From assembly GCA_050084515.1 (NCBI GenBank), contig CM114271.1, positions 23,932,001-23,996,000 of the forward strand: a stretch of 64,000 nt of DNA, written 5' to 3'. Source of the DNA: Blasia pusilla. Taxonomy: Eukaryota. Below, in pieces: positions 1-34,501 of this stretch. The notes beneath the pieces are model-generated. The model worked only from the letters and a program-made list of their open reading frames with translations. It was not told the origin of the DNA and did not search any database. Both the position numbers and the translations under genes were made by a program. Each line of letters opens with the position of its first letter. The stretch's first letter is position 1.

Positions 1-469
1 GGGTCCTCATCAAAGTTCCTGGAGAGTTGGTAATGTTGTTGGTGTGAAAGCACGGAGGGCGATGGGAGAAGCGAGTGCGACGACTCCTATTGTTGATGCT
101 CAGGAGGGGCATGTGTCAAGCACGTTCTTGGGGGCGGCCACCGTTGTGTACCGCACTCCTTTATTTTCTGCTTCCGATGTTGTGACGTTGGGAGGTACGC
201 CCGCCGAGGCTTCTCGGCTGGCCGCTTCACTATGTGAGCGCGGAGTTGGAGTTCCTGCATCACGTTCAGAGGTGATTGCAGAGGAGGTGATGGACCTGCC
301 CTTGGAGCGGATGCTAGGGCCGTCCACGTCAAATTCATGGCAGGCTGCAGCTACTAGGATGGCGGAGATGCCCGCTAGACCCGCGATAGAGCGTGCCATG
401 GCTTCTCCTGGTATTGTGTTGCTGGATAACCGAGGAGAGGTCTTCCAGTTGGTGAGTCGTGGAGGTAGA

Positions 470-830
470 GCTTTTAGTCTTGTTGGATTCAGGAGCGCAA
501 CCCTTGATGTTGGGGAAAGCGTCATTCAGAGGATTGGGCTTGACGAGAGCCGATGTGGAGTGTTGTCCATTTCGGATACAGACATCCTTGGGTGGAGCGA
601 GTACCACAAGATATATCACCCGGCTGGAGTCGTGGTGAGGATTCGCGGGACATCCTGCGATGAGTCCGTGGTGTGCGCCAAGGCGATAGTGATCGATCTT
701 TGAGTCCTACGACGTCTTGGTTGGTGGAGCGATGTTATACCCGATGGGGTTTCCTGGATTACTAGGAGGAGTCAACGTCCCCTGAGACCAGGATGGCGTC
801 GGTGATGGGCGCCTTAGCTCATTACCCGTT
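470..830 (+). pseudogene. Retroviral-type aspartic protease domain of copy 1
   Basis: A frame not shown in the ORF track reads LLDSGAQPLMLGK (GAT TCA GGA GCG at 486-497); SYDVLVGGAML follows at about 705-738 after frameshifts. Confidence 0.8.
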
Positions 831-1180
831 TGATTCACAGTGCGATGATCGAGCAGCGGCCAGGAGAGATGGCGACCTTAGCAAAGATTTAGCAAAGTGC
901 CATCACTTGGCCTAGTGATTTGATTGAGGACATGTCCATGCAGAGGATACTCCCTTTCCGACATTTCTGTGGAGAGGAGTGTTATGGTAGTGCATCATTC
1001 CGTGGAGGAGAGGTGCATTGTGGGGCTCGATTGAGGAGCTTCAACGATTGGCGGATCGCAAGACATGCAGCATCGCGTGGAGCGGCGTTTGCACAGAGCG
1101 TGACGGGTCCGAGGAACCCGAGGTAGCGGGAGTGCTACGATGACACCCTTGGATACTACACCCATTGTGTGGTGTACCCG

Positions 1181-2150
1181 GAGGAGGGTATTCGAGTGTT
1201 AGATCTCTTTGGAGGGATTAGCACGGGTTAGTGCTTGTTTTGCAGCGGGAGTGCGAAAGTCTGGAAGATACTTGTATGTGGAGAGTGATGATGTTGCAGG
1301 CGTCTCACTACGACATGTGGCGCAATTACGCCACGTTTTCGACTTATTATGCGTCCAGCGATGGGTACCGAGTTCCCTATCGAGGATATTTAGTTGTTGG
1401 GGCGCAGGACTAGAGCGGGTAGGGACCATTGATTTGGTCATTGCCGGTTGGCCATGTCAGGGCCAATCGAGTGCTGGACGAGGCAGCGGGTTGGCTGACA
1501 CTCGGTCCAGGTTGTTTTGGGAGATGTTGAGGATCTTACTTTACAAAGAGAGAATCTTACGGCGATTGCAGGAGCACCAATCTCGTTCCCAGCCTACATT
1601 CTAGAGAATGTGCCGATCTTAGGAGACTCCAGGTCACGGGTCGTGACGAGTGCTCATCAGGTGCGTGCCTGGATCGGCCCAACAGTGTTCTTGGATGCGG
1701 CGAGTGTAGGTTCTAGAGCCCATCGCCCGCGTCTATGGTGGACCAACTTGGTGCCCCATGCGGTGTTATGGAGGGCGATGCAGAGTGGAGCGCCCCCCCT
1801 TTGTTAGTGGATTCCATTTCGATCCGGTCGCCGATCACGGCAAAGTGAGGCACGATGATCGACCACCGCCGACGTAGGGTCAATAGGTAGGGTAGGCCGC
1901 GGGCGAGCGCCTTGCCCACGTTTGTGAGTTTTCCCGCTTCCTATGCATACAAGCAGGCCGGTCCTGGCTTGATTTGGGATGACCAGGTTCAGCGGTTGGT
2001 GGAGCCCAACGCCGAGTAGAGAGAGAGCGAGCGATGGGATTTCCCACAAGAGTGACGGCAGTACCATCAGTGTCAGAGGCATCACGACGCCATGTCTTGG
2101 GTCAGGCGATGGACCTGAACTGCTTGACATGGATCCTCAGCTTGGGAGTG
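1181..2150 (+). pseudogene. DNMT3-like C5 cytosine DNA methyltransferase domain within pol (frameshifted)
   Basis: Motif I IRVLDLFGGISTG (1190-1228); motif IV DLVIAGWPCQ; motif VI YILENVP; motif VIII AHRPRLWWTNL; motifs IX-X MGFPTRVTAVPSVSEASRRHVLGQAMDL. Confidence 0.9.
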
Positions 2151-2559
2151 GCTGAGAAGCGTCGTATGAGATCGCGACAGATCACAGCGGTTGCGTTGGA
2201 GAGCCCCATGCCTACCGAGAGAGTGGAGGCAGTGGCTGGGGGCGAGACCCAAGGAGATCTACGCACCAGGGTAGATCGGGAGAGACACCCTTGGACTTCT
2301 TGGGATGTTTTGAAGGTACGCAAGGAGATGATAGCCACAAAGATCGAGCGTGGTTTTTGCAATCGCACACGTGGAGGAGATCGAGTTTGCGATTGGTCGC
2401 AGGAGAGCGGCCGAAAGTGTTGTTGTTCGAGACGGGTTGCACCATAGCAACCACCGATACCCGCGCGGAGAGTCCTACCGTAGTCACGATGGAGACTTGG
2501 GAGCCGATATGGGCCCTAAGTTGACACAGGAGGAGAGCGGCGCCGAATACATCGTTCCT

Positions 2560-3910
2560 CGGGAGTTATAGGAGCCGCTGCGTTTAGCATGGAGGATTTG
2601 GGTACGTTGAAGGGACCGGGATCCGCATTGAGTTGTCGAGTGATATGCCGATCTTCCGACGACCCTACAGTGTACTGATGATATGGAGAGGGCTCGATTG
2701 AGTAGGAGCCAAGACTTGGTCGGAGCAGACTAGTGGAGATGTCGCATGGGGAGTATGCATCTGCGCCTTGTCATGCCCGCCAAGAAGGATGTGCATGGCA
2801 ACTGGACGGATAGGCGGATGTGTGGGGATTACCGACCTATCAATCAGCAGACGAAGTCCGATAGGTATGCCATGCCCACCCCTGAGGAGATCTTTGATGC
2901 GATTGGTCACGCAAAGGTCTTGAGTTCATTGGATTTGCGAGCTGGATACCATCAGCTGCCTATAAGATTGGAGGACAGGCAGAAGACGACATTTTGGGGC
3001 ATCGATCCTCACGGGAAGGATTGTTTGTACCAGTGGCGGTTCTTACCATTTGGGTTAAAGAACGCCCCGGCTGAGTTTCAGAGGGTCATGGATAGGATCT
3101 TGGCTGGTCTGGATTTTGCTAGGTGTTATATTGATGACATCGTAGTCTTTAGCACCACGGTTGAGGAGCATGAGCAACATCTAGAGGAGGTGTTTCGACG
3201 ATTGCAATTACATGGGCTGAAGCTACATCCAGGCAAGTGCAAGTTCTTCTACGACCAGATTGAGTACTTGGGTCATACGATATACCCAGGGGGCCTTGGT
3301 GTTCAGCAGACGAAGGTAGAGGCTATCTCACGCATTTTACGCCCTACAGATGTGAGCCGTGTTCGCGCATTCATGGGATTGGCAAACTTCTATCGGCGAT
3401 ACGTCAAGGGATTTAGTTCGATTGCGAAGCCGCTGACCTTGCTCACCAAGTGGATCACGAGTGGCACTCGGGGGGATGAGCGAGCGAGCATTTGATTGCT
3501 CAAGGATAGGTTGACGTCCGCACCCATCTTGAGGAGACCGATCGGCGTCCTTTCCATTGCACCACGATTGGAGCATGTTGGGGCTTGGAGCGGTGCTCAC
3601 CAAAGATGATGATGAGGGTAGAGAGTTTGTGGTGGCTTACGCTAGCCGCTCGAACAACGCCGCAAAGGCTAAATACACTCGTATGAGGGTGAGTGCTTGG
3701 TCGGTGTGGGTCGTCGCGCATTTCAGGTGTTACTTATTCGGCAACCCTTTACCATCATCACTGATCATCAACCACTGAAGTGGTTGATGGAGTCCGACAA
3801 GCTTACAGGGAAGCTTGCGAGATGGGCTCTGTTGTTGCAGGAGTATGATTTTGGTGGTACATAGACTGGAACGCTCAACCAGGATGCAGATGGGTTGAGT
3901 CGTAACCCAT
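2560..3910 (+). pseudogene. Reverse transcriptase and RNase H of copy 1
   Basis: RMCGDYRPIN, LDLRAGYHQ, LPFGLKNAP, YIDD (3127-3138), KCKF, YLGH; RNase H DWSMLGLGAVL, VVAYASR, DADGLSR. Confidence 0.95.
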
Positions 3911-4099
3911 GCCCGTCGGCCGAGATGTGAGTGGAGCTCGATGGCATGGAGAGAGTGATGAGGAGTCGGTGGCGGTGGATGGCACGCGGCGTCGGCCTAT
4001 TCGGGCATGTTGGCTATGGAGAGCCAGAGTGTGGAGACTTCGATGGCGAGGTCTAGTGGAGAGTCTTTGGATCCCGAGGCGAGTGAGGACACGACAAGT

Positions 4100-5540
4100 G
4101 GCCGAGATATTCATGATGATGGAGTAGTCTTAGAGTACCTTCGTAGTGGCAGCCTTGTGAGCACCATGGATGCTAGAGAGCGGGATCGGATCCTACAGCG
4201 GGCCAGACGGTTCCGTTGGGAGGGGACATTTGTTTTGAGGGTTTGGGAGGATGGCAGAGTACGCGTAGTGCCGCATCCTTTGCAGAGAGCACAACTAGTG
4301 CAGCATGCCCACGAGGAGTTGGGTCACTTTGGGGTGAAGCGGACGTATAGCTTGCTCCAGATTCAGTATTGGTGGCGAGGCATGCAGACTGACGTTCAGC
4401 AGTTTGTTGCCAGGTGCATGGTGTGTGATCGGGTCCGAGCATCGTTCAATGCTCCGACTCCACAGTTGCATCCATTACCAATCATGGGCTTAGGGTATAG
4501 ATGGAGTTTGGATTTTGCAGGACCTTTGCCCTTGACGGAGCGTCACAGTCGTTATGTGTTGGTGATGGTCGAGCACTTCTCGAAGTGGATCGAGTTGGTT
4601 GCATTGCCTGACAAAGCGAGTGAGGGAGTAGCTTATGCCTTCCTTGACAGAGTTCTGAGTCATTATGGCATACCAACTTAGGTGTTGACAGATCAGGGTA
4701 CCGAGTTTCGTGGTGAGTTCCAGGCCTTGTGTGATCAGGCGCTGATCGGCCACCACACGACTTCGCGAGATCATCTCGAGGCGGATGGATTAGCGGAGAG
4801 AGTTGTCCAGACGGTGAAGAGGGTTTACGCAAGTATGGCTTGCAGAGAGGTCACCTAGGAGATTGGGACCTCCAGTTGCCATGGTTGGCGATGGGATACA
4901 GATTCAATAGGCAGGCATCCTTAGCGTCTTTTTCACCGTATTTGCTACTTTATGGCCGAGAGCCAGATTTACTTGCGGCCATTCGTCGAGATCTTTGGTG
5001 AGGTCTGAACCTTGATGACCCTGATGTATGGGTGCGAGCATGTTCTCAGAGGGCTGAGTTATTTCGGAGAGTGATGCCCATGGCGTTCGAGAACTTAGCG
5101 ATTGCACAACATCGGGATACGTTGAGGTATGCGACTATTCGAGGTGGTGGTTATCGACCAACTATCCGGAGGTTTCATCATGGAGATTATGTCTATTTGC
5201 AGCAGACGGCAAGCGGCGTTGGATGTGATGCAGGCGCACTATCCTGAGAGTGCGTGACATTTTGCCATCGGGTGTTCTCTTGCTGGAGGGACGCGATGGT
5301 ATGGTATGGAAGGACCATGTGCGTAATTGTGCGCCATGTCACCTTCCTATCATTGATGGTAAAGTAGATCCGAGCTTAGTAGTAGTTCCTGCAGGCTTGC
5401 GTTGTATGTTTGTGGTTACGCCGTAGTGCGCCACGATGCTAGTCTGTGATGGGTGTTCGAGAGGATGGCATATGGCATGTTTGACGCCACCTCTCACTAG
5501 GGTTCCTAAGGGACGATGGATGTGTCCCAGATGTACATAG
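4100..5540 (+). pseudogene. DDE integrase with C-terminal PHD finger, copy 1
   Basis: HHCC motif HEELGHFG...CMVC; core SLDFAGP / VLTDQG / GLAERVVQ; PHD ...[33 protein letters not shown] with stop at 5538-5540. Confidence 0.92.
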
Positions 5541-5711
5541 AGAAGGTAGTTCTACATTCCGACTTGTGTCTATGACATGGATGACAAGGAGGCGACTAAC
5601 GATGGGGCCACATGAGCACCCGACCTTCTTGCTCTTAGCGTCCGAGAGATGTATGTCATGATAGGTAGGGATAGATGGCTATCTGGAGTTAGAGGGACCT
5701 AACCACCAGCT

Positions 5712-5720
5712 AGGGGGGCG
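5712..5720 (+). promoter_or_regulatory. Polypurine tract of copy 1
   Basis: AGGGGGGCG lies immediately before ATTGGAGATA, the start of repeat B; the same arrangement is at 25321-25329 (-) in copy 2. Confidence 0.75.
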
Positions 5721-6490
5721 ATTGGAGATATTTTGGTTCTTCTTGTCTCGTTGTTTGGATGCCATGAGTTAGCATGGGATCATGCGTGTTTGTGTGTGTG
5801 TTCGGTGATAGCGATGTATGTTGTGTAGCGATGTGTATGCGCACGACAGCTATCACGTCTTTTAGGATAGATCGGTGGGATCTAATAGAGCTCCTTCATG
5901 AGTAGTGGAGGACACGCCCAGTAGTCGAGGGTGACCTGCTGAGGCCCTTGGAAACCTGAGATAGCAGGTTTCCCCTTCGTTTCGGCTCATTTGGAGCCAT
6001 ATTGAGGAACTTACTATTTTAGGTAAGTACCATTTTGAGTATATGATCGACTTTCTAGTTTTGGTAAGTGGCCCTTGACCTCCTACATCAAGTCAAGAGC
6101 CAAGTAAGTGACTTGGGAGAATAGGTTACCATGGAGAGAGCTTGGGAGAGGAGAGGGGTATACCTCAAGGAAAGAGAGCTTGAGAGCTCATTCTCTCTTT
6201 GTTGAACCTCTTGGCATGAGGCGGCGGAGCTATGGTACCTTGTCTTGTGAGTGTAACCCAAGCCTCTCATTAGGAGAGTGGGTTTGGTTTGACATGAGAG
6301 AGAGTGCACACCTTTGAGAGCTATGGTGTGAGATGGTGGAGAGAGAGATTGGATCTTACTTTATTGGAGATATTTTGGTTCTTCTTGTCTCGTTGTTTGG
6401 ATGCCATGAGTTAGCATGGGATCATGCGTGTTTGTGTGTGTGTTCGGTGACAACGATGTATGTTGTGTAGCGATGTGTATGCGCACGACA
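5721..6490 (+). repeat. Split terminal repeat B1 (5721-5848) - GC - A2 (5851-6362) - B2 (6363-6490)
   Basis: The 128-bp B unit is present twice and nearly identical, flanking a ~510-bp A unit homologous to 33757-34273 and 24692-25190. Confidence 0.92.
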
Positions 6491-6499
6491 GCACACATG

Positions 6500-7720
6500 C
6501 TATTATAATTGAAAAAAAGGTTGGTAGGAAGTATGGTGTTGTATCCCCTTGAGTTTATCCTTGATTTTTGGGAGGAGACTCTTGTCTATTCATTGGCCAA
6601 GTTGATGATTTCATGATTTTTGGAAGGACAAGACATTCTTTTAGAGGAGAGTCCTATAGAGAGATAGGCCATAGTAGGTGTCTCTTCCAATGACAACAAT
6701 ACCCCTTGACCATTGTGGGGTATAAGTGACCAGAAGAATGTGAACAAGCTTGTGAAGCAGTAGTAGAGCTAGGTGACTTTAGTACCCAAGAGCACAACTA
6801 TATTATCACTTGGAGTGGTGACATTGGTACCCTTGGAGACCATACACATCATGTGGTAATGTCAAGAGGAGGGGGTGCAAATGTTTTTTTTTTTTTAGAA
6901 AGATGAGCATGGGGTTGGATTTAGTGTCGTAGATCATTGTATAGATACATCGATATCTATATATTGAGAGAAATGAGATATATCACATGACGAGTCTCAT
7001 TATGCCCTATGATGAGGTTGGTCTAGTAGTATCTTGAGTTATTAATGGTATTCGCATTATATGGGTACAAGCCTCCATTTTTTATGAATATTTCATTAGT
7101 AGGGGCATAGGATGTGAAGTCTTGGACAACGTTAGCATCGTTCATTTCATGGTCTTTGGATGGCCAAAACACAATCATTCGTGAATTGGTTAGGGGCATG
7201 GTTTGTAGGATACAAGTTCGAGCATATTTTGGGAGATTTTGCGAGTATAATGAAACTTGTAGGAGAGGCAAACATGTTCTCCAATGTATATGCATTTGAG
7301 AATCTGGCTATTGGTCAACATAGGGATACATTCAGATGTGCGACCATTTATGGAGCAAGTTATCATCCATGGACTAGGAGATTTCATCCTGAAGATTGGG
7401 TGTAATTACAGTAGAGAGCACTAATGAAGCAAGAAGTTACTACATGGTGCATAATTTTGCATGTGCACATGATGTTTTCAACAAGAATCCTCATTTTGGA
7501 GGCAAGACGACATCTTTTAAATATAGGTGGGAGAGTACATATGAGCTTGCAAATCATATCTATGGGTTTGAGGTGTATATTTGTGTGGATTCAAGAGGGA
7601 TACATCCACCATGTTGGGTTGTAATGGTTGTTCTAGAGGGTAGCATTTATCATGTTTGACCCCACCACTTGACTTAGCTTCATCGAGATTATGAGTGTGT
7701 TTTAGATGTGTATAGTGTAA
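6500..7720 (+). mobile_element. Older, highly degenerate remnant of a related Gypsy element
   Basis: ORF 7160-7405 ends AFENLAIGQHRDTFRCATIYGASYHPWTRRFHPEDWV versus copy 1 AFENLAIAQHRDTLRYATIRGGGYRPTIRRFHHGDYV. A PHD-like remnant lies at about 7610-7710. Boundaries are uncertain. Confidence 0.7.
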
Positions 7721-9672
7721 TTGAGATCATGTTAGATTAGTGTGGATGTCATGAATGATGTCTTGAGTTTGTATGTTTAATTTCCAGTTAGGGGGATGAT
7801 TGTGTAGTTTTGGAATACATTTATGAGTGTATTTTTATGTGTATATGAATCTTCTCCCATTTTGGGAAGATTAATGGTGCAAGGTTGTCCTATGATCTTG
7901 ATGATATTGGATACTCTTGGGGATGGCACGCCTACTCCAATGTTTATGATAAGTGCGATGGCTTCAAAGGCGACGGTTAAATTTCTAACACTTTGATAAT
8001 GTAGGGAGTTAGCAAGATGTTGAACTATAACTTTGTTGCTTTTTAAACAACTTCCGGTGAGATCAACGTTTACTCATGAACATGTATGTAGAGGTTACCG
8101 ATTAGGGTTATATTGCGGGGAGGGCTCTTTGCCGGGGGAGGAGGGGGAAGATCAAGGTTGCACACAAACGAAGTCTATGTCTACAGGCTTATATTCATCC
8201 CTAGGACGAACATGTCTGAGTGGGCCCGCCCTATGCGCAACGTCGACACGGGCTTAGCGAGCCCATACCCAGTCTAGCAACTTGTCGTCCGTTCTTGCCA
8301 CCTCTTTTGTAGCCCATGCCTTGCTCATAGAGGCCCGCACTGGCTCGGGCCTGCATAGGGCCCTTGGTAGGCGTGTGGCCAGACCCACAGGGCTAGCCAA
8401 GTTCTAGGGGGGCTCAATGCAGACCACGTGTATGATTGATGCGGGTCAGGTAAGGGCTCATACCACCCACAACCTTTTAATCCATGCTCGCATTCCTTAA
8501 TCAAAGCCCTCACTCGCACCCGCTCCCATACCCTAAGCTCAGCACTCTTTTCCCTCATGTCACGTGTCTCAAGAAGAGGGTAAGACAAATAAGAAGTTAT
8601 TTGTAATAATAAAATTAGTATGATATATAGTAGAATATTTTTATTATTATAAGAGAGTGCCCTCGTGAATTCGGAACACATCTCCTTTCCAAAATGACAT
8701 TTTTAGCCCATTGGTCTTGCCACGAATCCTCTAGTGATTAGGGATCACTTTTTAGGGCCTTATCCCATGGCCCCGTTTCTTGGTGTCACGTGCGATCCTA
8801 AAAAACTGGCCCCCGGCTGAAATCTCAGCCAGTTCCAGGCTGAACATTCAGCCTGAAAATGCCCCTCGCCACTCACTCTACTGAATGTCACCTGTCACTC
8901 ACTCTACAGAGGAAAAAAATCGCGGGGTCACAGTTCTTGTGGCAAGCCCGTCAAATTTCTGCGACTCCGGCTAAAAGTAGACAAGTCTGGGCCGCATGAT
9001 GAGGTTGATCTAGTCTAACGGCGAGAGGTTGTGGCCCATGGGATAAGGCCCTTAGGACCCGGTCCCATGCGGCCGAGGTCGTCAAGACGACACGAAGACC
9101 CCATCCCACTATTCCGGATCTTGGTTGATCTTACGGATGAGATTCTTGGGACTCCACGGAATTCGCATCCTTAGAACATAGGGCGCAAATCTGTGCAACC
9201 CTGCTAGAAGAAAACAACACAACGATGGAGGCTGCTATTTGCAGGGAGCCGGTAGCAGCCGGTCCTTAGATATGAAGAGGAAGGCAAGTTCTAATTGTAG
9301 AGAGCTTAAACTCTCCTCCCGCGGGCTAACTCATGTGACCTCGATAGCATAGAGTATGCATGGGGACATAAGGAATCCACGTACCACCCGAGATCACGCC
9401 CGGCAATGTGGGGCTCTCGGGATATCCTGCGAACTGCAGAAGTTTGTACTTGACCGCTATTTCGGGACGACTTCCGAAGGTGCTGCGGAAGGAACACACA
9501 CAAGCACAGACAGACAGACAGTCGATGTCGATCTGGAAAACTAGAGAGAGGAGGCGAATGTGATTGACGTGTTCGCGAAGGATTCCTGAGAATCCCTGAA
9601 ACGGAAAGACGATACGATCCCGTTCTTGGAGCCGGAGTCCGAGTCGGAGATCCGTGGGCTGCGCCAGAAACG

Positions 9673-12101
9673 ATGGCCACAGTCTCCTTCATAAGCTGCA
9701 AGCTCCTGCCCGCGCTGTCGTCGAGAGGGTCGTCAATTACACGAGGTCGATCGCGATCGCGTCCGCTGTGTTGCGCTACTGCGATCGGTCGCCGGAACGC
9801 GCTGCCACTGCGTGGAGTTTCGTTTAGGGCGGGGAGGGTTTCGCGAGGCGGGCGAGCCATGGCGATGAGCGGGGGAGGCGCAGGCGCGGGTCCGCAAGGG
9901 CAGAAGACGGAGGAGGAGTGGCGCACGATTCTCAGCCCGGAGCAATTTCGCATTCTTCGCCAGAAGGGCACAGAGTGAGTGTTTGGATTTCGTGCGGTTT
10001 TCAGGTGTCAGTCATTGAGTTCATTGATCGCATATTTGCCTTGAGTTCTCGTATCGACAGCGATTGATGCCACAGTTTACGGTTCTAGATTTTCGGAATT
10101 CTCGTACATTCCTACTTGTGTGGGTTTTGTGAGTATTCTGGATCCCGAGGTGTCAAGAATCTCCAGGAGAGGATTCTGAAACTAAGAAAATCTACGAATT
10201 TAAAGAGGTGATTGCGAGAATCGGTAGGAGATTGAATCGGTTTGGAGTGAAAGTCGGAGGTAAAGGGTGGAATTGTAGTGAGTTTCGTCACAACAGGGAA
10301 GATGCCGTCATGGGGAATAGCGCATGGGCAGGCTTTCGCTGTTTTCTCTGGGGAAGAATTGGACAAAACAAACCTTCTTGAATCTGGATGATTAACTAGT
10401 TTGTCGTGATCAATTATTTCTCAACCCGGGAAGCTTTTCTGCTGGCACGGATCTTTTCCCGCACCTTTCTCGGGAAGGATCGGAAAAAGAATTCCACCTT
10501 GAATTTGGATGATACTAGTTTGTTGTGATTATTTATTTCAGTCTGGGGAGCTTCTCTGCTGGCTCGAATCCATAACCCGTATCCATGTGGAGATTTTCTT
10601 TCCACACTCATCCCCGAATAATCCTAGGTGAGAGTTTTGGGTCAGACTGTCGCTTATCACACACATAGACAATCTAAGAGTTTGGGTCTTGGAGAACAGT
10701 CAGTACGAAACCTTCGTTGTCTCTTAATAATGGCATTTTGTTCTGTGTAGACTTTGGATGAATACATTCAGTCATTATCATTCGTTCTCTGACTGCAGAA
10801 GTTCGGTTCATTGATTTTCGATGTGACTGGTTTGACTGCGATGTATTTGTCCTCTTCGGGAATTAGGGACTCCGTCCAACGGGTCTTTTGAGAACTTCCA
10901 ACAGAGTGATCATCCTTCGAAACCATGGCTCGGATACAAAAGAAAAGTGCTTTGGGTTTACATCACACTTGTGTAGTAGCAAAGTGGCCAGAAGGATATA
11001 CAAAGCCTTTTGATTTTTTGACACTCGGCTGAGTGGGGATCTATAGAAACTACAGGTCTATGAGCAGGGATCCGTTTTGACCACCAAAACGGTTTCCGGA
11101 TTGGATATTAATCGAGCTTTCTGAATTTGCATGGTATTGAGAATTCTGGGATCATTGCAGGAATCCCGAGTTTAGTTTGAAGTTTGGCTCTTAGAATTGA
11201 AAACTTAAGTTTTTTCTCTGATACATGATGATTCAATGATCAAGTTTTCTGTCTTCTGACTCTCGATGTCTCGACATTTCAGGTGGGCTGGGACCGGGAA
11301 GTATGATAAGTTCGACGCGGAGGGTTTATATGAATGTGCTGGATGTGGAACACCTCTCTACAAGTCAACAACAAAGTTCAATTCAGGCTGTGGTTGGCCG
11401 GCTTTCTTCGAGGGTCTGCCTGGTGCTATAAAGGAGACAGTGAGTTTTTCTTCTTTTTAAAAAATTTCTCGTGACGGAATTGTCCGCGCTATTTCACTTC
11501 TTTGTGGTAGTTACTGAAGTCCAAACCCTAAACGCGTCCCCCAGGAGATGTGGAAGTTCATGACCAACAAAAAAGACTGTTCCAATCAACTATGTTTCCT
11601 TTGCAGTGCTTTGAAATACGAAGCCTAAGTATGCAGGCAGGCAGGCCTTGGGAGACAGGAGGATGGTCTGGAGGCCTAGAGGAAGATGGTAGGAGAGTGG
11701 GCAGATGTCGAGGAGCATTGACACTTGGGGGATTGGAACAAACTTAGAATAATGAGCCTAGATTCAGTCTACTTCTTGGCTGAGGGCTGGAGACCCTTTT
11801 TAGTTTTTTGCTTGATGCCAGTGTCATGGAGTTTGCTCATGTGGCCCCATTAATGATCCAGAAGAACCGGAATTGAAAGTCGAACCTTGAAGGGGGTTTC
11901 CCTCCAAAATTTTCTGCCACCCTGTCCTGATTGGAACACTGGATGCAGGTTGATGCAGATGGCCGACGGATTGAGATTACCTGTTCTGCCTGCGGGGGTC
12001 ACTTGGGCCATGTGTTCAAGGGTGAAGGATTTCCCACTCCCACCAATGAGCGTCACTGTGTGAACAGTATTTCCCTGAAATTCACCCCAGAAAAAAATTG
12101 A
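9673..12101 (+). CDS. MSRB: Peptide methionine sulfoxide reductase B, probably plastid-targeted (3 exons: 9673-9974, 11283-11439, 11949-12101; 203 aa)
   Basis: [22 protein letters not shown] / [26 protein letters not shown] / [19 protein letters not shown]...RHCVNS. GT-AG introns join in frame (612 nt). The Ser/Arg-rich N-terminus resembles a transit peptide. Confidence 0.95.
10378..10570. repeat. Degenerate two-copy direct repeat in MsrB intron 1
   Basis: GGATGAT..ACTAGTTTGT.GTGAT...TATTTC...GCTT.TCTGCTGGC occurs at about 10385 and again at about 10505. Confidence 0.55.
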
Positions 12102-15744: not shown

Positions 15745-18700
15745 TACTATAAATAATATATCCACTTTATTATAAAATAAACCTCAAAAGAGGACAAAGA
15801 AAAGTAATAACATCTCAAAAGAGGAGTCAAAAAATGCATAAAAGAATGCAAAAAGAAAATGGCAACAAGCCAACGCAAACACGTGCTCAACGAGCTACAC
15901 GATTGATAGCCTGAAACAAATCTGACAAGAACACGAGTGGTTGGTCAGACGTGAATGGACGACGAGGCGAGCGACCCCCCACCACCTCGGCACGACGTAT
16001 CAATGCCAAGGCTTGTGCATGTTGTAAGGCCACTGAGATACATTGCCAAAAATAAGTAGTAACTATCGAGAGAGAAGGACTACGGGAAGGGACAAGGTGA
16101 TGATTCTCGAGGGAGTGGTGAGCACATGTTTTCAGGAAAGTATCAAAAGACACATGTAAATGACCGAATACTTCCACTGCAAAAGGAATAAATCCATCAG
16201 TTGCATGTCTCACAGCATAACTTAACTCCTTGATTCTTGCTGCAGCTTCGGCCGCCAAACCTTTGGTATGTGCAGCTCGACACACCAAATCAGAACGTGT
16301 TGGATCAGCAACCACCACATCACCTAGTGTCCGAAATCCACCTCGAGACATAACAAGATCCACTCTCCGACGAGAGGTTTCTTGTGTGGTTGAAGGTAGG
16401 ACATGGAGTTGCTCTTGCCCAACGGTGTATCCTGCAGTACTAGCCACCGATGCTACCGCCTCTCTAATGACATCGTGTGTGGCCGTTCGTTCTCCACCAT
16501 GTGCACATCGGAGAATATGGATACCCTTGGCATCAATGGGATCCCCGCATACACAATTTGGCACACCTAAGAGAGAAGGATGGGGAAGTCCAAGACGTAA
16601 CCGGAAAGTTGTCGAGAATATACTTTGAGGAAGACGAAATGGAAGAATAAGAGGATTTGCAGAAAGCCACGCCCCCGCTCCGGTACCCGCACATGAACGT
16701 AGACGAGCTCGATTAGCGTCGGAGGATGCCTCGGAGAGAATGCTGGAAAAGTTGATTTGATGCAGATTCTCGGAGATATGCTCTTGAAGTCGATCAAGCC
16801 CTTCCGTAATCAGTTGACTGAAAGGGGGTAGAATTGCTTGTGTAGCAAGAGGAAGAAGAGCTCGTGCAGATCTCAGTTGTTGTTGAAATAACAAGTCCCC
16901 CTCCTCTACATGGGCGATATGATCCATCAAGATAGGTGTATCTCCTTGGAGAAACCTTGAAGCCATAATCGGTGCTACCAACGCCCAACTCCCCAAAAAG
17001 GTCGGGAGAGCAGATGATTTGTGGAGGACAGTCCCACCCCTCCAAAAGAAATAGGCAAGATAGCTTGTCGTGAAGCAAAGACACCATCCTCTCCTTCAAA
17101 GGTATTCAGGCCAAGAAGTTGACCAAAAGTTGCCAAGATAGAAGCATCAAAAGAGGCCAACCGATGTAAGAACCTTGAAGTGGGAGGACAAATGCGAAGA
17201 AGGTAGGAAGGACGTCGTAGAAAACATTGGGAGAGAATCCCATAAGCCACTTGGGGATCCCCAAGATGAGGTAACAAATGAAGCCATTCCACGTCTTTCA
17301 AAAGGGCCTCATCCAAGAACTTTGAGACATGGTCGATGAAGCCAATTGGGACCCCCAGGAACTCTAACCCCTTCAATGTAGATGGGAGAATCAGGAGTAG
17401 GTGGGGTGAATGTTGAGGGAAGGCATGAAGGAGACCATACTCCACATTTACTAGGTTGGACTTTAAGGTTCAAGAAAGAGAGTTGCTCCACGAAATGGGT
17501 ATAAGCTGGAACCACTTCAGAATGAGGACCTATTATGTGAGTGTCATCAGTAATAGAAGGGAAAAGGCAAGATGGAAATGCTTGCGCTGATGCTCAAAGG
17601 GCACGAAAATGGGCAATGGCAAAGAGTGGGCCCCCCATAGGATCACCTTGACGTGTGCCACAAGCTGATTGTAGAATATTATATTCCCCAGAAGTAGCAT
17701 GATGGGAATAGATAATGGGCGTATCATAGGCATAGAAGGAGCAAACAAATGGAATGAGGCTTGCGAGTTGTCCTCCTTCACAAGGTAACTCCTCAAAGAT
17801 GGCCGCACGAGAAACTGAATTGAATGCGTTATCCACATCGACTTGAATTGCTACCCAATCTGGATGAATATCAAGAGTGGAGCAAATCCCATGCACCACA
17901 GCCTCACAACCTCCAGGAGTTGCCACTCCAAATTGATGAGGAAGTAAGTGGGCACTAAAGTGAGGACGAAATTGCAAGCATAGGGATCGACTAACCAAGC
18001 GGTATAAAACCTCTCCAATAGCCAAAGGGCGCACACCTGAAAGAGGCTTATCCATAGCCAACAAACAACAAGCCCCTAAGAGCCTAGAGATAGAGAATGG
18101 GAGACGACATGCCGCCATATGTGCCCACACCTTATATAGAGAGACAAAGCTACTTGCTGAATCTGCTGGGATAAAGCAATCGCGAAGATGCTCAAAAACC
18201 ATCCCTGATAGCCCGCTTGCTGATAAGCGATGAGTATGCAGAAAAGCCCTCGTGAAAACCTCCAAGTCAAGATCCAAGTCAAGGTCCGTTGTATAGTCTT
18301 CCACAAAAGATGGAGCATTGCCACTTGAAGGAGGATGAAGAGCTTCTAAGAGAACCATTGTTTCCGCACTTGGAACCGCCGGAGAAAGAGGACCCAATGC
18401 TCAAGCTGCACGTGAAAACTCACCAACCTGCCCCAAAAGTAGAACTTCGTCGAAGGCGTTGTTGTATTGAAGGCCTCCCATGATTAGCATGTTGAGTGGG
18501 ATCAGCCGTCAGCTAAGGCCTCTGCTCGAAGTACATGCTCATTCTAAGATTCTCCCAATCCCCAGACATAAAGCGTTGAATACGTGTGGAGGTTTCACGA
18601 TGACCTGTTGCACCACCCCTTGGAGGGAGGACTAAAACCCATTGTGGGAAGAGTAATAGGAGATACCAAGCATTTATATATGTGGGGTCACGCGCTAACC

Positions 18701-19472
18701 TTTCTAATGGGAAAAGAAAAGCTTGTTGGGTGATGGGGCGAAGAGCAATAGGAATGCAAGTGTAGAGTCTAGGACGAGGAAGACCTAGATGGAAAGAGCG
18801 AAGGAGATCAATTTGGCTTAACCAAGTCCAAGCAGTTGTTGTGGGGAGTGCAGTAGGAGGTGGTATCAGGTTAGGGATTGAAGGCCCATGCATGGATCGA
18901 CAGTACCGCTGATGTCTTTTGATCCCATTAAGAGCAAACTCTTTACCACAAGGTATGCAATGAACCTTTGGTACAAATGGAGAAGTAGAAGGGTTACAAG
19001 GAGAGGAGGTGGGAGGTGCAAGAGGTGGTGATGACCGACGATGAGGGGGTAAGTAGGTTGGGGAAGGAGGAGGAGGAAGAGGGGAGATTCGGGTAGAATA
19101 GATGGGAGTTGGAAGCAAGGGCATAGATGAGATATGTGGGGATGGCAAAGTAGAAGGATTCGGTAATAATGGATCAAGATTAGGCTCAATAGGACAAGGC
19201 GAAGAAGGGAGAAGAGGAGAATCCGAAAGAAAAGTAGCAAGTGTAATGGGTGTATTAGCATCTGGAGGAAAATGGCGAGATCTACGATGAGGAGGTGAAC
19301 CAGGGGGAGAGGTTACGGCTGTAGGAGGGCGTGTAAAACCAGATAAGCGAGTAGATGGAGAATCCAACTCCATCTCTGATGACATAGAAGTAAAGGTAGG
19401 CAAGTCTTCGAAGACAAGAAAAGACATATGAAACGTGGTTTGGAGAAAGCATGAGGATAACGAGCAAAGCAA
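15745..19472 (-). mobile_element. CRE-like non-LTR retrotransposon (RT plus restriction-like endonuclease), disrupted; 5' boundary may extend further right
   Basis: N-terminal CIPC...HQRYC finger; RT motifs GVRPLAIGE, QFGV, DVDNAFN, GTRQGDPMG, SITDD; C-terminal CVC...HILRC knuckle, THDVIR, RRVDL...GDVVVADP and FIPFAVEVFG. Confidence 0.88.
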
Positions 19473-22400
19473 AAGTAGTGGAATCCGTCCAAAAGAAATT
19501 TAGATGGAGAGATGAAGATTAGGCAATACCAAATTTATGATTGAAAGTTACTATAAGAAAAATATTAAAAAAAATTGAAAAGGAAAAGTGATGTATATGG
19601 CATCGGAAGAGATGGCTCAAGAATATGAATTTCTAATGTCCTTAAGGAGATGGCAAACGTATGTAGGGGCGAAACAGTAAGGTAAGGAGTTGAAAGAGCA
19701 AGTAAGACTTTTGGGAGGAATTGACCTAAAACAAACCCGTACCCAAAAATAGGCGCCTATAGAGAAGGAAGAAAACTAGAAATCCTACTTGATATCAAAA
19801 GAACGAGCTCGTCAAGACGATCGAAACAGGCCCAAACACGTCCAAAACCGACATTCCAGAAGAAAGTTATGAAAGAAATTAGAAACACCAAAAAAGAGGA
19901 TGTGAGGAGTAAGTGAGCCACCCACCAATGACCGCTATGAGGGAATGAGTTCGTAATGTTGGGCCCAGCCCGTATCAAAAGATCCAGAAAAGCAAGAGGA
20001 ATCCCTTAAACCAATGGTAACCTAGTATCACTCTAAAAGGAGAGCGCTATGTTTGAAATTGCGTGTAGGAATCTATGAGCACATTTAGGAGAGAAGGAGG
20101 TCCAAAGATCCCAAGAACTTTGGAAAACTCAATCTTAAGTGGAAAAGAGAAGAACCCAAAGTTCAAACTTGAGAAGATGAACACATTGGGCCTTAGATTG
20201 AAAAGATTGGATCACCATGGAAATAGTTAGAAGTAAAATTCTAGACGTCCCTCTATCTCCTCAGCCATAGTCCTCCTCCTCCATGTCTCCTCCTCGTGTT
20301 GGCATCGCCATCTTCCGGAACATGTTTTTATTATCGCTTTGTTGTGCGGCAATGGTGATTGGGCACAATTGTGAGAGTTTTCATTAGAAAACCACTTGAA
20401 TGAATTGATCAATGGATCCATCCAATGCAAGTAGAGTAAAAGAGGACTTCTTCCGGTACTTCAATTGATTAATTAACGCAAAGCGAATAGAATAAAAGAC
20501 TTCTTCTTATCTATCCCATCCCGGGAAAACGAGGCAAAACCTTTGGAACGATGTGGAACGACAAACGCGTCATTGATTCCAGATTTCAGCAGACAGCTTG
20601 TGAGTGCAGAAACTGCTTAGAACCTTCCAAGGAGTGGGATAAGAAAGGATTAGCGCCCACCGCCCACTAATAGATTGCAACCGGAATCAGTCTAGTTGTT
20701 GGGAACTGTTTAAGAGCAGTGCCACGGTGTTAGTTAGTGGGTATTCCGATTCCTATCGTTAAGGTAGGAACACACCATAAACAAACAAACACAACCAGAA
20801 CCCTAAACCTTACGAAACTCAACACGTGTACGCATCAAGGTTCCTTCATGACAGGAATCGTGTCAAATGTGCGTGTGGGACCCCACAGGATGAGCCCTTC
20901 CTTCACCCTTTACACATGGGACCATCATGTAATTCTGCTCGAGAATCTTTTGTGCTTGTGTGGAAATCACACAAATCTTTGCATGATTTGAACACGAGAC
21001 ACCCATAAACGGACCTCCGTAGATATTCTCAAGATCCGATGTCATCTCGTCCGTTCGCACTTCCATCCTGTACTATTCCTATGTGGGAAGAAGCTTCCAT
21101 TGACTCGTTACACAATGGTGTATCGCATGCTCTTCCGTCTAAAAAAAACAAAAGGAAAAGGATCATGTGATAAGTTGTGTCCCACACGCTCACAAAGAGG
21201 AGATGGGACGGTCTCCTTCTTGTGGCAGGTGACTTTAGTGACATTGTAAATGAGGTCCCGTATTCGTTGCAAATCGTGTTCATGTTTTGTTATCCTTTCG
21301 CTGGTGACTGTATAAAATTTCCTCTTTTTTTTCCAGGTTGGGACGGAAGAACGTACGAGAGGCTTTTCGTTCTCAGAAATGATTTTTTTTTATAAATTTC
21401 TTAGACCGATTTCTTTTTTATGAAGGTCGCGATGCTCACGAGGAGCACCGAGTTCGTTAGAAACTGCCATCTGCCAGCTTAAGCCTAAGGCGCCCGAGTG
21501 TTAACCACAAGTCTCGCTCGAGTAGTAGTCTATTTTTAACCCTGGTTGAAAAGCACGGGTTGTGTCTGTTGTGACATTGAACAGGAGGGTAGGCGCAAGG
21601 TTAAAAGCCGGAAACTCCTAACCACTAGACCCACTCGAGTCTATTATTAACCCCGGTTCATTGGACGGGCTCTCTCTCGTTTCCACATTTAACCAGACTC
21701 ACGCACCCACGCACGGCGGGCAAGTTAAGCACAAGCTGGCTGTAAAGCGCACGGCGTCCGTAGGAGAAAGTGACATGGCATATATAAAAAAGGCTCGTGT
21801 GGCGGTAATTAACCTCTCTCCAGCGGACATCCAACGTGGATTTCCCAGCTTGTCCACGTGTCAACAATAATTTTCAAAGGTCAAAGTTCGAACGCGAGAA
21901 TGAATAATAAGTCTTGTGGATGTGTAGGTGTATGCACAAAGTCATTACTTTTACTTTACCACACGAGACATGTCATGTACTTGTCCCTCTGACTGTTTTG
22001 TCTTTCCGCACTCGGAGGCCTCTCTCTCTCTCTCCTCTATCTCCGTGTCATCGAAAGCTTCCGACCTTCCCGAGAGCTCGAACTCTCGAGTCTCGACGGG
22101 TTTACGAATCCGGACATCATCGTCCGGGGAGAGCGTCCACTCATGCCCCTCTGACAGCAGTTACAACTGTGCCGTGCAGCGCGAATTCGGAACGAGTATT
22201 CAATGCCGTCGTCTCGCGCTTTCACTCCCGGAGGTCGGAGCGGAGCGCAGGGGAGTGGAGTGGACTCAGAGAAACAAACAAAATTAGCATTCTTCAAGAC
22301 TTCAGCAGCAGATCGTGGCTAATAGTGCATGCTTCTACCGTTGAATAGTGCAAGATTCGGCATGGTCCTTATACGTATCGAATCCGTGGAGTAAATGTGT

Positions 22401-24564
22401 CGAATTCCGATGCGTGGACCCGATTCTCGAAGGACGGGCGGAAGGAAGAAGGTAAGATATCTTGCTATCGTTCTTGGCGTTTAGCTCCGCTTGGCGCGTA
22501 CTTAATTCTTCCCGAATCCTGATCATCGACTTTCGATGGGGCCTCTCTCGCTCCCTTGTCACCACTATGTCTTTTCCGGAGCGCATCGCTCACGGGGGAA
22601 AGAGCCAGCATTGATGATAATCCTCGATCACGTCCTCCGGTCATTTTTCTTTCTTTCTCTCTACGACCCCTCCCCTGACCGCTGGGGCCTCGACGACACC
22701 GGACGGGACTCGCGATAGTCGTAGGACCTCAAGGATGGGACAAGGGGCTACGATCCGATCCGGATGACTACGGAAGTCCCAATTTATCACGTGCATGATC
22801 GAGCCAGGGCACGGGACCGGGCGCATCCCGTGCTCTCGGGCGAGCTACCGGACTGCCATGTTCATGCGGATTCGAGGAGGGACAGGACTCGGTAGCGAAA
22901 AGAGGCATCTTGGGATTGTGCGCGTGGTATGTGGGCGCTTGTCATACGACGTCGCATGCACTATTCCAGTCCTCCCAAAGCGGGACCTTTGGGCGGCCTT
23001 ACAGCGAAGTAGTAAGTACTTAAGTACTGCATCGATTTCGGTCGGCGCACTTGCACTTTCCCGTCCCCGTTCCCTCTCTCGGACGCAATCGACGCGCTCC
23101 CTGTCGTCGTCGGCGGAACTGCACAGTCGGACGTCGTCCGGTGCATGATGAGGATCCGGATGTAATATGCTTAGCATTAGGAGAGCATCGCTTAACGTGT
23201 GTAATTCACGATAGTTTCAAGGAATCGAGGACTAGGAAAGAAAAGACGAAAGTACTAATCACTACGTCGTCCTTTGCGCGTGATGGGACCACACATGTCA
23301 TGGACATGGATTTCATTCTTGTTCCGGAAATTTTAAACGTCCGGAACAAGAATTATTAACACTGGCTGGCCAGCTAGTGTTAAGAAAGAATTAGAGTCAA
23401 GAATTAGATAAAATGGTGAAAATTTTTGGTTTTTTTTAAGTTAATGATTAAATCTTTTTTAATCAATTTAAATCAATCCTACTCATCGAAAGAACTAGTG
23501 ATCCAATTAAATGAAATGGCGAACAATCTTGTTGGTTGAAGGGAGCATACGTGAAGAGAAGAGTTGTTTAAAAATCAAGAAGGGATTTTGCAATAGTACC
23601 TTAAAGTACTTGATAATCCTTCCACGTGAATATAAAAACTTCTCCTATGAATGGAGCTTTGACTCATCATTCCAGTCGGCATTTAGTGCCGACTAAGGTA
23701 ATAGCTTTTGGTTTTGCTTTCAGGCTTCGGAGCTAGGGTTTGTACCTTGAAATAAAGGTGGGGTAACATTCCACTTATGTTTGGTGCCCACATAAAATTT
23801 TAACTAGCGTGGCCCCTTGCCTTGTAAGATAATCATGGGGGAGTGGAGTAGCACTTACAGAAGATTTAATATGGCACTATTTTAATTTTTGTAATACATA
23901 GAGAACCCAAATCCATTTGGGGTTCATGTTGGGGATAAAGATACCATTAGTAAATGAAAAAAAAATAGAAGAAATTTGGTTCAACCAAATTAATTCAAAA
24001 TTGGATCTAAAATCATAAGAGAAAAGAATAGAAATTTCACTTTTATGAACTAAACTGATAATAGTATAAACTATGTCAAGAGAGTAGGGGGAGGGGGATT
24101 ACTAAAAAGATAACTTCTTGCAATTATATATCTTTTATCCCATGCACTTTGTGAAAACCCGATGTGAATGGCTCAAAGGAGTTACAAGGCCCATTGCTAA
24201 ATATTTTCATGGGGACAGTCATACACCTTAATGATTTAAATCATGTAATAAGTAGTTACGAGAAAATCAAGTTTTGGGTGTGTGTTGGTTTCGAGTTTGA
24301 TTCAGTTCTTTGAGTTGACTCAAAGAAAGGATTTTCATGGCTTTTTTTACTAAAAAAATTCAATATTTTCTCCCAATTTTTATTATTTTATTATTTTTGT
24401 TCCAAAATAATGTGACAAAGATCATAACCATGTACAAGGTACCATAATTTCACTCTATTAAGAAAAATCTTCATCAAGAAAGAATTTCAAGAAGATCATA
24501 TTTCCCAAGAAGATTTTCTTTTAACGTAAGTACTATCAAGGTAGCATATGGATAAAGTCGTTGT

Positions 24565-25320
24565 TGTCGTGCGCATACACATCGCTACACAACACACATT
24601 GTTGTCACCGAACACACACACAAACTCGCACAATCCCATGCTAACTCATGACATCCAACAACGAGACAAGAAGTACCAAAATATCTTCAATCTCTCTCTA
24701 CACAATCTCACACCATAGCTCTCAAAGGTGTGCACTCTCTCTCATGTCAAACCAAACCCACTCTCCTAATGAGAGGGTGGGGTTACACTCACAAGGCAAG
24801 GGACCATAGCTCCGCCGCCTCATGCCAAGAGGTTCAACAAAGAAAGAATGAGCTCTTAAGCTCTCTCTCCTTGGGATATATACCCCTCCCCTCTCCCAAG
24901 CTCTCTCCATGGTAACCTATTCTCCCAAGTCATCTCCTTGGCTCTTGATCTGATGTAGGAGGTCAAGGGCCACTAACCAAAAATACAAAGTCGATCATAG
25001 ACTCAAAATGGTACTTACCTAAAATAGTAAGTTCCTCAATATGGTTCCAAATAAGCCAAAACGAAGGGAAATCTGCTCTCTCATGTTTCTCAGGGCCTCA
25101 ACAGGTCATCCTCGACCTCCTAGGCATGTCCTCCACTACTCTTGAAGACGCTCTACTAGATCTCACCGATCTATCCTAAAGGACGTGGCAATTGTCGTGC
25201 GCATATACATTGCTACACAACATACATCACTGTCACCGAACACACACACAAACACGCACGATCCCATGATAACTCATGGCATCCAAACAACGAGACAAGA
25301 AGTACCAAAATATCTCCAAT
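24565..25320 (-). repeat. 3' split repeat of copy 2: B1 (25193-25320) - AT - A2 (24692-25190) - B2 (24565-24691)
   Basis: Same B-A-B layout as 5721-6490; PPT at 25321-25329. Confidence 0.92.
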
Positions 25321-25506
25321 CGCCCCCCTAGTTGGTGGTTAGGTCCCTCTAACTCCAGATAGCCATCTATCCCTACCTACCATGAGATACATCTCTCGGA
25401 CGCTAAGAGCAAGAAGGTCGGGTGCTCATGTGGCCCCATCGTTAGTCGCCTTCCTGTCATCCATGTCAGAGAAAAAGTCGGGATCGAAACCTACCTAGTA
25501 TCTCCT

Positions 25507-27000: not shown

Positions 27001-27129
27001 AGACCTCGCCATCGAAGTCTCCATAGTCTAGCTCTCCATAGCCAACATGCCTAAATAGGCTGACGCGTGCCATCTTGGCACTGACTCCTCATCACTCTCT
27101 CCATGCCATCGAGCTCCAATCGCATCTCG

Positions 27130-28555: not shown

Positions 28556-28914
28556 ATTTGGCTCTCAAGTCTCCATCGTGACTACGGTAGGACTCTCTAG
28601 CGCGAGTATCGGTGGTTGCTATGGTGTAACCGCGTCTCGAACAGCAACGCTCGGTTGCTCTTCTGCAGCCAACTACAAACTCTGATCTCCACATGCAGTG
28701 TTCGGAACCACGCTCGATGTTGTGGCTATCATCTCCTGGCGTACCTGCAAAATATCCCAAGAAGTCCAAGGGTGTCTCTCCCGATCTCCCCTGGTGTGTT
28801 GATCTCCTCGGGTCTCGCCCCCAGCCACTGCCTCCACCGTCTCGGTAGGCATGGGGCTCACCAACGCAACCGCTGTGATGTGTCGCGATCTCATCCGACG
28901 CTGCTCAGCCACCC

Positions 28915-34273: not shown

Positions 34274-34501
34274 TTGTCCGCGGACAATGCCAGATATGTC
34301 CATGTATGTGAACTTACGTCCGTCCGATGGAAGGACTTATCCATGTGGGCCTCAACTTTCTCTTCTTTCTTATTCTCTCCACTTGCCTATGTGTTCCATA
34401 CTTTCCTCTTGAAGCCCATAGATTGCCTCGGTATCGCACTTAATGCGAGATCGGGCAGCTTGGACGCGGGCAGGCAAGTGAGGGGGAATGCCAAAACAAT
34501 A

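Follow-up and report, generated by a model that had tools for sequence, protein, structure and literature searches.

A 64,000-nucleotide stretch of the genome of the liverwort Blasia pusilla (NCBI GenBank assembly GCA_050084515.1, contig CM114271.1, positions 23,932,001 to 23,996,000 of the forward strand; from here on the window) contains a Ty3/Gypsy-order retrotransposon, present as two decayed copies and an older relic, that carries a C5 cytosine methyltransferase (DNMT) domain inside its Pol region. We give a probability of roughly 0.85 to the reading that these belong to a high-copy bryophyte family of the Gypsy-DNMT3 kind, in which the domain is integral to Pol. Copy 1 (about 1-6490, forward strand) is cut by the window edge and copy 2 (34278-24564, reverse strand) is complete; blastn aligned the two at 89.6% identity over 5353 columns. 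From Pfam and tblastn matches the domain order was gag (with a zinc knuckle), protease (PR), DNMT, reverse transcriptase (RT), RNase H (RH), integrase (INT) and PHD finger. An earlier note on this DNA, made from its letters alone, had called the element a Gypsy retrotransposon. The order PR-RT-RNase H-integrase, found by Pfam in both copies (the protease region being assigned by tblastn to relatives, without Pfam), bears this out, and the complete polyproteins of relatives agree with it (tblastn).

The methyltransferase domain within Pol

In copy 1 the methyltransferase domain occupies 1175-2159 of the forward strand, where it is spread over changing frames (stop-to-stop open reading frames (ORFs) in three frames). 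The motifs that the earlier note had placed at 1181-2150 were all present and in order (I, LFGGISTG; IV, PCQ; VI, ENV; VIII, AHRPRLWWTNL; IX, ERAMGFP; X, VLGQAMD), and the Pfam family PF00145 matched the piece 1203-1604 (E = 4e-9, 36.8 bits). The same family matched the piece 29387-29680 of copy 2 (E = 1.9e-8, 34.6 bits), so that pieces of both copies lay above its gathering cut-off of 22 bits. Pfam was silent on the C-terminal pieces of the domain (1499-1807, 1983-2447 and 28673-29218), which were assigned by tblastn to relatives.

A second copy of the domain at the same position in pol had been given by the earlier note as 28915-29835. The tblastn span confirmed it with a somewhat wider extent, 29836-28751 on the reverse strand, in a single frame and at 62% identity to relatives from Marchantia, ENA and Logan over 350-362 residues (62% over 362 residues for the best span). 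Both copies are disrupted, as had been claimed. Copy 1 contains at least three frame changes as well as stops, and the domain of copy 2 is interrupted by in-frame stops at 29681-29683, 29387-29389 and 29219-29221. Copy 2 keeps motifs IV and VIII-X, has ENI for motif VI and shows damage in motif I; it also lacks about 340 bp that are present directly upstream of the domain in copy 1. Both window copies are dead and without function.

A third, far more decayed relic of PR and DNMT (6521-7343, forward strand) was found by tblastn with the relatives P0003, P0006, P0007 and P0308, at 24-32% identity. The region around it (6491-8300) has an observed/expected (o/e) CpG ratio of 0.46 and a GC content of 0.40, compared to CpG o/e ratios of 0.76-0.85 in the two younger copies. 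Such values are what long-term deamination of methylated CpG would produce. The relic directly adjoins the 3' side of copy 1.

That the methyltransferase is built into Pol and in frame with it follows from the frame that it shares with RT, a stop that is private to copy 2, the single-ORF polyproteins of relatives and the absence of flanking repeats. In copy 2 one frame runs from 29836 through the DNMT-RT linker (28565-28750, by frame walk) and RT (27611-28564; frame walk, and tblastn with P0308 697-976 in frame -1) to about 27590. It is interrupted by stops only (the DNMT domain and the linker have three each, RT has two) and is lost near 27589. At the linker stop 28565-28567 nearly all sibling RNA reads and DNA contigs carry another letter, showing that this stop is private to copy 2. 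The Marchantia gene model P0308 is a single protein with DNMT, RT and RNase H, to which both the DNMT and the RT of the window matched in frame -1. Three proteins from metagenome contigs (P0142, P0342 and P0359) are complete predicted polyproteins with zinc knuckle, PR, DNMT, RT, RNase H and integrase in a single ORF. No direct or inverted repeats of at least 14 nt flank the domain in copy 2, and copy 1 showed two short imperfect matches only. A nested insertion with termini of its own was rejected on the absence of flanking repeats and on the frame shared with RT.

The earlier note had regarded the domain as a family feature rather than a one-off capture, and this stands, since it is in frame with RT in copy 2 and occupies the same position in the complete polyproteins of relatives. 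That we are dealing with a chance host DNMT3 pseudogene, a one-off capture or a nested insertion outside the family has a probability close to nil. The broken state of both copies could, taken alone, suggest degenerate mosaic DNA, and otherwise no support for such an origin was found. It is refuted by the same position and frame of the domain in the two copies and the relic, by the same architecture in Marchantia, Sphagnum, Closterium, Klebsormidium nitens and metagenome polyproteins, by the absent repeats, and by the congruence of the DNMT and RT trees described below.

The class question (METHYLTRANSFERASE) was judged by ranking against solved methyltransferase chains, by sequence and then by fold. 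With the domain of an intact sibling (part of P0007) as query, the DNMT3 chains ranked first (DNMT3A, 8e-13; DNMT3C, 1e-11; DNMT3B, 1.7e-9), ahead of the non-DNMT3 chains of tobacco DRM (3.7e-8) and HaeIII (1.6e-5). A 12-sequence family profile gave DNMT3A at 1.5e-25, DRM at 7e-17 and 3e-12, HhaI at 4e-11 and DNMT2 at 5e-11, with no match to DNMT1, CMT or DNMT5 at E ≤ 0.01. Single broken pieces from the window ranked weakly against solved structures, one finding DNMT3A at E = 0.004 and a second nothing relevant. An AlphaFold2 model of the sibling P0008 reached a predicted local distance difference test score (pLDDT) of 86.7 and a predicted template modelling score (pTM) of 0.87, and in a Foldseek search with this model every chain among the matches listed, down to rank 49, was DNMT3A/B/C. 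Compared to chains holding only the DNMT3 catalytic domain, its target-normalised template modelling (TM) score was 0.79-0.85, at 20-23% structural-alignment identity to the human enzymes.

Among solved methyltransferases, and with host DNMT3A/3B/3C, plant DNMT3 and DRM taken for comparison, DNMT3A/B/C were thus the best match by both sequence and fold, in line with the DNMT3-like wording and spacing of motifs that the earlier note had pointed out. The order of motifs I-X is unpermuted, unlike that of DRM, and motifs VIII and IX enclose a short target-recognition region, as in host DNMT3. The family domain differs from host DNMT3 in lying inside a retrotransposon polyprotein and in lacking PWWP and ADD, for which no Pfam match was found on the window pieces or the relatives scanned. 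Protist and algal DNMT3s likewise lack companion domains according to the text of PMC12344493, and PWWP and ADD therefore do not define the catalytic subfamily. The phylogeny in the text of de Mendoza et al. (PMC5890265) places the transposable element (TE)-borne relatives of K. nitens inside the DNMT3 clade. Taking this placement together with the rankings against solved structures, the domain appears to be DNMT3-like.

Conservation, selection and transcription

Conservation of the domain was scored by alignment columns; regular-expression motif counts were misleadingly low, owing to conservative variants (ECQ, ENT). Across 148 relatives the catalytic Cys was present in 147, the motif VI Glu in all 148 and the motif VI Asn in 140, with the two motif VIII Arg residues in 147 and 145, the motif IX Gly in 141 and the motif X Asp in 132. 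The residue preceding the catalytic Cys was Pro in 59 of the relatives and Glu in 77.

This exchange of the Pro of the PC dipeptide for Glu in 77/148 relatives, mainly of the sister clade, would fit a domain that no longer transfers methyl groups and serves Pol in a structural or DNA-binding role, or that acts on RNA. So would the sole published test of a Gypsy-DNMT3 domain, in which that of K. nitens gave no detected methylation in yeast; its authors regarded the result as inconclusive, because human DNMT3B failed in the same assay (PMC5890265, section 10). We consider such a loss improbable, as the Cys (147/148), the Glu of ENV (148/148), the motif VIII Arg and the motif I Gly are kept across a very deep family, which is the pattern that purifying selection on catalysis would leave. 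The domain of intact siblings is probably a working de novo methyltransferase.

Ratios of nonsynonymous to synonymous substitution (dN/dS) were calculated between copy 1 and copy 2. For the DNMT domain the ratio was 0.45 over 324 codons, compared to 0.86 and 0.98 for two off-frame controls. Values for the remaining regions were 0.39 (RT), 0.33 (RNase H), 0.34 (integrase), 0.45 (PHD region) and 0.88 (DNMT-RT linker).

Two RNA runs carrying the label of the host species gave 3529 and 3542 reads on copy 2, from 6-12% of each run. These reads covered all 30 bins of copy 2, with a depth of about 15-36 over the DNMT stretch. Their strand bias was about 10-50:1, marking sense transcripts if the usual stranded library chemistry is assumed. 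About 87-88% of the reads were only 90-95% alike to copy 2 and hence came from sibling copies. DNA contigs of two runs had a summed depth in the thousands, which identifies a high-copy family.

Some RNA reads formed joints across parts of copy 2, one skipping 1066 nt (27384-28451; 6 and 8 reads) and another 249 nt (25574-25824; 1 and 9 reads). Neither had canonical intron ends and neither was seen in DNA contigs; they may reflect deleted sibling copies or template switching.

Relatives, lineage and element anatomy

A word-indexed search with a 133-residue piece yielded 10 proteins from 817 candidates, all 10 with PF00145; seven of them were annotated as "hypothetical" proteins of Marchantia polymorpha, in which gag and protease lie upstream. 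PF00145 scored above its cut-off in each of the nine relatives scanned. The domain profile, run with HMMER against 1.84 billion cluster representatives, matched 7319 proteins at E ≤ 1e-3 (327 at E ≤ 1e-30), and the best 150 of these 7319, which were the matches listed, all had E < 2e-51. Annotation of 173 proteins by phmmer probes cut from relatives showed DNMT alone in 72, most of them short or incomplete models. Among the 173, the full layout seen most often was RT-RH-DNMT-INT-PHD (38 complete, with partial forms in addition), the gag-PR-DNMT-RT-RH-INT layout being a minority. P0139, P0150, P0163 and P0183 are among the relatives with DNMT between RNase H and integrase, the type to which most relatives found belong.

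Trees were built by quick or FastTree searches, without bootstraps and from TE sequences only, with no non-TE outgroup. The DNMT tree (149 rows, FastTree) split 37 rows from 112 with a support of 99. On one side fell every one of the 85 rows whose domain lies between RNase H and integrase; on the other fell the window together with all rows in which DNMT precedes RT or follows gag and PR. An RT tree of 80 rows gave the same split, 9 versus 71, with a support of 93 by the Shimodaira-Hasegawa-like approximate likelihood ratio test (SH-aLRT). As the two trees agree, the domain travelled with its backbone: the lineage co-diverged with its RT, and its catalytic residues were retained. In an IQ-TREE analysis of 69 rows the window fell in a 19-row clade (SH-aLRT 100) together with 13 Marchantia rows, one Sphagnum row and four further rows. 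The K. nitens protein GAQ93235.1 (P0228) was in the 59-row ingroup of the window (SH-aLRT 98) and on its 37-row side (99). Named members on the window side were Klebsormidium nitens GAQ93235.1, Closterium spp., Mesostigma viride, Sphagnum fallax and many Marchantia models; on the other side they were Scenedesmus "pol", Haematococcus and Chromochloris. The domain thus occupies two positions, between PR and RT on the side with streptophytes as named members, and between RNase H and integrase on that with chlorophytes.

The bryophyte elements could also have gained their DNMT independently of K. nitens, by convergent capture at the same position. Repeated captures of DNMT are described in the texts of PMC5890265 (by DIRS, LINE and Gypsy elements) and of a 2026 preprint (EpiLTRs), and give this idea some precedent. 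It is nonetheless very improbable: the bryophyte, Closterium, Mesostigma and K. nitens rows form one ingroup relative to the RH-DNMT-INT clade (SH-aLRT 98), the position in Pol is the same, and the RT tree gives the same split. On sequence grounds, the element is a member of the streptophyte Gypsy-DNMT3 lineage with the PR-DNMT-RT layout. The broader proposition, that Gypsy-DNMT3 is an ancient retrotransposon lineage found throughout the green lineage, with a DNMT3-type enzyme and an integrase PHD finger, whose two DNMT positions track two backbone clades and which persists in bryophytes including the genetic model Marchantia, where it is abundant and transcribed, is one to which we give slightly less than an even chance.

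The remaining parts of the element were mapped copy by copy. In copy 1 the gag end and aspartic protease region lie at 74-878 on the forward strand (tblastn, P0308 17-273 to 80-845 and P0007 113-232 to 486-839), with the D-S-G motif of the protease in ORF 456-638; Pfam found no protease family in this 60-residue ORF, and the 5' part of the element is off the window. The DNMT3-like domain (ORFs, PF00145 and tblastn with P0007) is followed by RT at 2734-3495 (PF00078, E = 1.7e-32), by RNase H in two frames at 3533-3864 (PF17917/PF17919, E about 1e-12) and by integrase at 3962-5214, comprising an H2C2 zinc finger, an rve core and a C-terminal part (PF17921, E = 6.7e-18; PF00665; tblastn, P0342 1656-2198). 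All of these are on the forward strand.

In copy 2, on the reverse strand, gag with a C-x2-C-x3-H-x4-C zinc knuckle and the start of the protease region lie at 30328-31967 (tblastn with P0003, residues 9-321 to 31967-31041 and 395-573 to 30894-30328). The knuckle, in ORF 30834-31478, can be aligned with "CCHC-type domain" proteins of Marchantia; Pfam detected zf-CCHC in the relative P0142 and not in this window ORF. Beyond the DNMT domain (tblastn, translations and PF00145), linker and RT come RNase H at 27130-27618, after the frame change near 27589 (ORF; tblastn with P0342 and P0308), and integrase at 26065-27027 (H2C2 and rve; PF00665, E = 1.8e-12, and PF17921, E = 3.5e-12, on 26065-26760). 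The C-terminal PHD finger that had been expected from the letters was recognised at the integrase C-terminus of copy 2, at 25513-25647 (PF00628, E = 4e-11, residues 84-128 of ORF 25507-25896).

The terminal repeats are split direct repeats, laid out as A1, internal region and B1-A2-B2 in copy 2 and ending in B1-A2-B2 in copy 1. A 509-nt repeat A is found at both ends of copy 2, as A1 (33771-34278, reverse strand) and A2 (24688-25196), which are 95.1% alike. On either side of the 3' A lies a 128-nt repeat B in both copies, so that the 3' block of copy 2 (24564-25321, reverse strand; blastn) reads B1 25192-25321, A2 24688-25196 and B2 24564-24692, and that of copy 1 (5720-6490, forward strand; blastn against copy 2 and with a repeat query) reads B1 5720-5848, A2 5853-6363 and B2 6363-6490. 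No B-type repeat was found upstream of A1 in copy 2, where the sequence just before A1 resembles the end of B over about 15 nt only. B1 is preceded by a purine run. We take this split-direct-repeat layout to be the one known from PAT/Ngaro-type DIRS elements. It matches the DIRS-like layout reported for the K. nitens element, the repeat structure of which is "the same" "as that of a DIRS retrotransposon" in a figure legend of de Mendoza et al. (PMC5890265, Fig. 4c).

Several points weigh against our reading of the family. No intact copy lies in the window, and the open PR-DNMT-RT frame is seen only in the predicted proteins of relatives. A target-site duplication, TG..CA ends and a primer-binding site were looked for in the window copies and none was recognised, and the pairing of a DDE integrase with DIRS-like split repeats is mechanistically unexplained as to the route to integration-competent ends. 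The two-copy dN/dS of 0.45 mixes selected change with neutral change after insertion and is inflated by decay, and the RNA reads demonstrate transcription of siblings, not a transcript with an open DNMT frame. The DNMT3 label rests on rankings and on the published position of the K. nitens relatives, the trees containing no host DNMT3, DRM, CMT or MET1. The yeast assay of the K. nitens domain, inconclusive as it was, also counts on this side.

Elsewhere in the window, an apparently intact single-exon ORF for a GATA zinc-finger transcription factor was found at 39970-41055 on the reverse strand (PF00320, E = 2e-14). Its closest proteins were from Riccia (62-66% identity) and Calypogeia (60%), with no near-identical Marchantia protein among the matches. 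By these matches alone the host would be a bryophyte, probably a liverwort and apparently not M. polymorpha. Long ORFs of a non-LTR (long terminal repeat), LINE-like retroelement occupy 15887-19499 (reverse strand), of which ORF 17594-18400 matches PF00078 (E = 3e-7); a LINE-like ORF at 58493-59014 (reverse strand) resembles, by eye, the C-terminal ORF of that element. The end of ORF 9568-9978 (forward strand), which had no Pfam match at E ≤ 0.01, presumably resembles the beginning of a methionine sulfoxide reductase B-type protein.

Possible function and place among known systems

In intact siblings the domain would be translated inside Gag-Pol beside RT and could in this way be packaged in the particle, where it might act in cis on the new cDNA of the element or on its insertion site. 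Packaging and cis action, which we propose because the domain is made within Gag-Pol beside RT, are plausible but fall somewhat short of an even chance; the idea of a cis-acting packaged enzyme was put forward in the text of de Mendoza et al. (PMC5890265).

An active domain might instead have its main targets in trans, in the host genome or in rival elements, altering host methylation or silencing these rivals. The conserved catalytic residues would serve such a role, the high copy number and transcription of the family mean that released enzyme could reach chromatin, the regulatory PWWP and ADD modules of animal DNMT3 are missing, and accidental activity on the host genome is raised as a possibility in the text of PMC5890265. 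According to the same text, K. nitens, which has relatives of the element, nevertheless has a plant-like methylome. Placement within Gag-Pol also favours work within the particle or the pre-integration complex, and we regard a mainly trans-acting enzyme as unlikely.

The nearest solved PHD fingers to that of copy 2 were those of CHD4, PHF12, DPF2/3, KDM5A/B PHD1, PHF21A, ATXR5 and AIRE, all of which we take to be readers of unmodified H3K4. Chromoviruses, Gypsy elements whose integrase carries a C-terminal chromodomain, share with the window element a histone-reader module fused at that site; they differ in that the module is a chromodomain there and a predicted PHD reader (PF00628) here. By analogy with the chromodomains of chromoviruses, the PHD finger might direct integration towards silent chromatin, a suggestion that we put forward tentatively.

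The element extends a known kind, Gypsy-DNMT3, to bryophytes and is not a new kind. Novelty of kind was not supported by the comparison: the window element shares its DNMT clade and architecture with a K. nitens protein, and Gypsy-DNMT3 was published for the charophyte alga Klebsormidium nitens in 2018 (text of de Mendoza et al., PMC5890265) and is cited as a streptophyte feature in the texts of PMC12344493 and a 2026 preprint. As described in the text of PMC5890265, KnitGypsy-Dnmt3 resembles the window element in having a Gypsy Pol ORF with an un-rearranged DNMT3-type domain, a DIRS-like split-repeat layout and, apparently, signs of purifying selection on the domain. The window element differs in that its host is a bryophyte land plant and its domain belongs to the separate 19-row bryophyte sub-clade. 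It has a PHD finger after integrase, a feature that KnitGypsy-Dnmt3 may or may not share. K. nitens GAQ93235.1, with a gag zinc knuckle followed by DNMT and a place in the window's ingroup, may or may not be one of the published KnitGypsy-Dnmt3 copies.

The RT-RH-DNMT-INT-PHD elements (Scenedesmus sp. "pol" KAF8056149.1, Haematococcus lacustris and Chromochloris zofingiensis) share a homologous DNMT, with all matches to the profile at E < 1e-51, the Gypsy domain set and a PHD finger after integrase. They differ in the position of the DNMT, between RNase H and integrase, and form a sister clade in both the DNMT and the RT trees. SymbioDIRS-Dnmt3 and SymbioLINE-DNMT of Symbiodinium likewise encode a C5 methyltransferase in a retrotransposon but, by description in the text of PMC5890265, are independent acquisitions on unrelated backbones (a tyrosine-recombinase DIRS element and a LINE). 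SymbioDIRS-Dnmt3 produced CG methylation de novo in yeast (PMC5890265, section 10).

A search of full-text literature, including five Marchantia gene identifiers, found no description of a TE-borne DNMT3 from a bryophyte or other land plant, although supplements may list copies; none was found in the texts of PMC6453930, PMC12344493, PMC11982613, PMC10952607, PMC9033089 and two preprints. In the same texts the integrase PHD finger and the two alternative DNMT positions were undescribed, and supplements may hold such data.

At least 17 public Marchantia polymorpha gene models are pieces of this family (e.g., P0003, P0296, P0308 and P0345), labelled as "hypothetical", "CCHC-type domain" or "DNA (cytosine-5)-methyltransferase" proteins. 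TE-borne domains of this sort may be taken for DNMT3 genes of the host and could inflate counts of methyltransferase repertoires.

DNA methylation is the main weapon of the host against transposons, which makes a de novo methyltransferase encoded by a transposon a paradox. The lineage reaches land plants, as seen in the liverwort of the window, in many Marchantia gene models and in Sphagnum; its catalytic residues are kept across hundreds of 50%-identity clusters, and the family is transcribed in its host. The question thereby moves to organisms in which knock-outs, methylomes and transposition assays are routine. If it is indeed unreported, the family would be the first in a tractable land plant with which to ask why an enzyme that usually silences a transposon is encoded by one.

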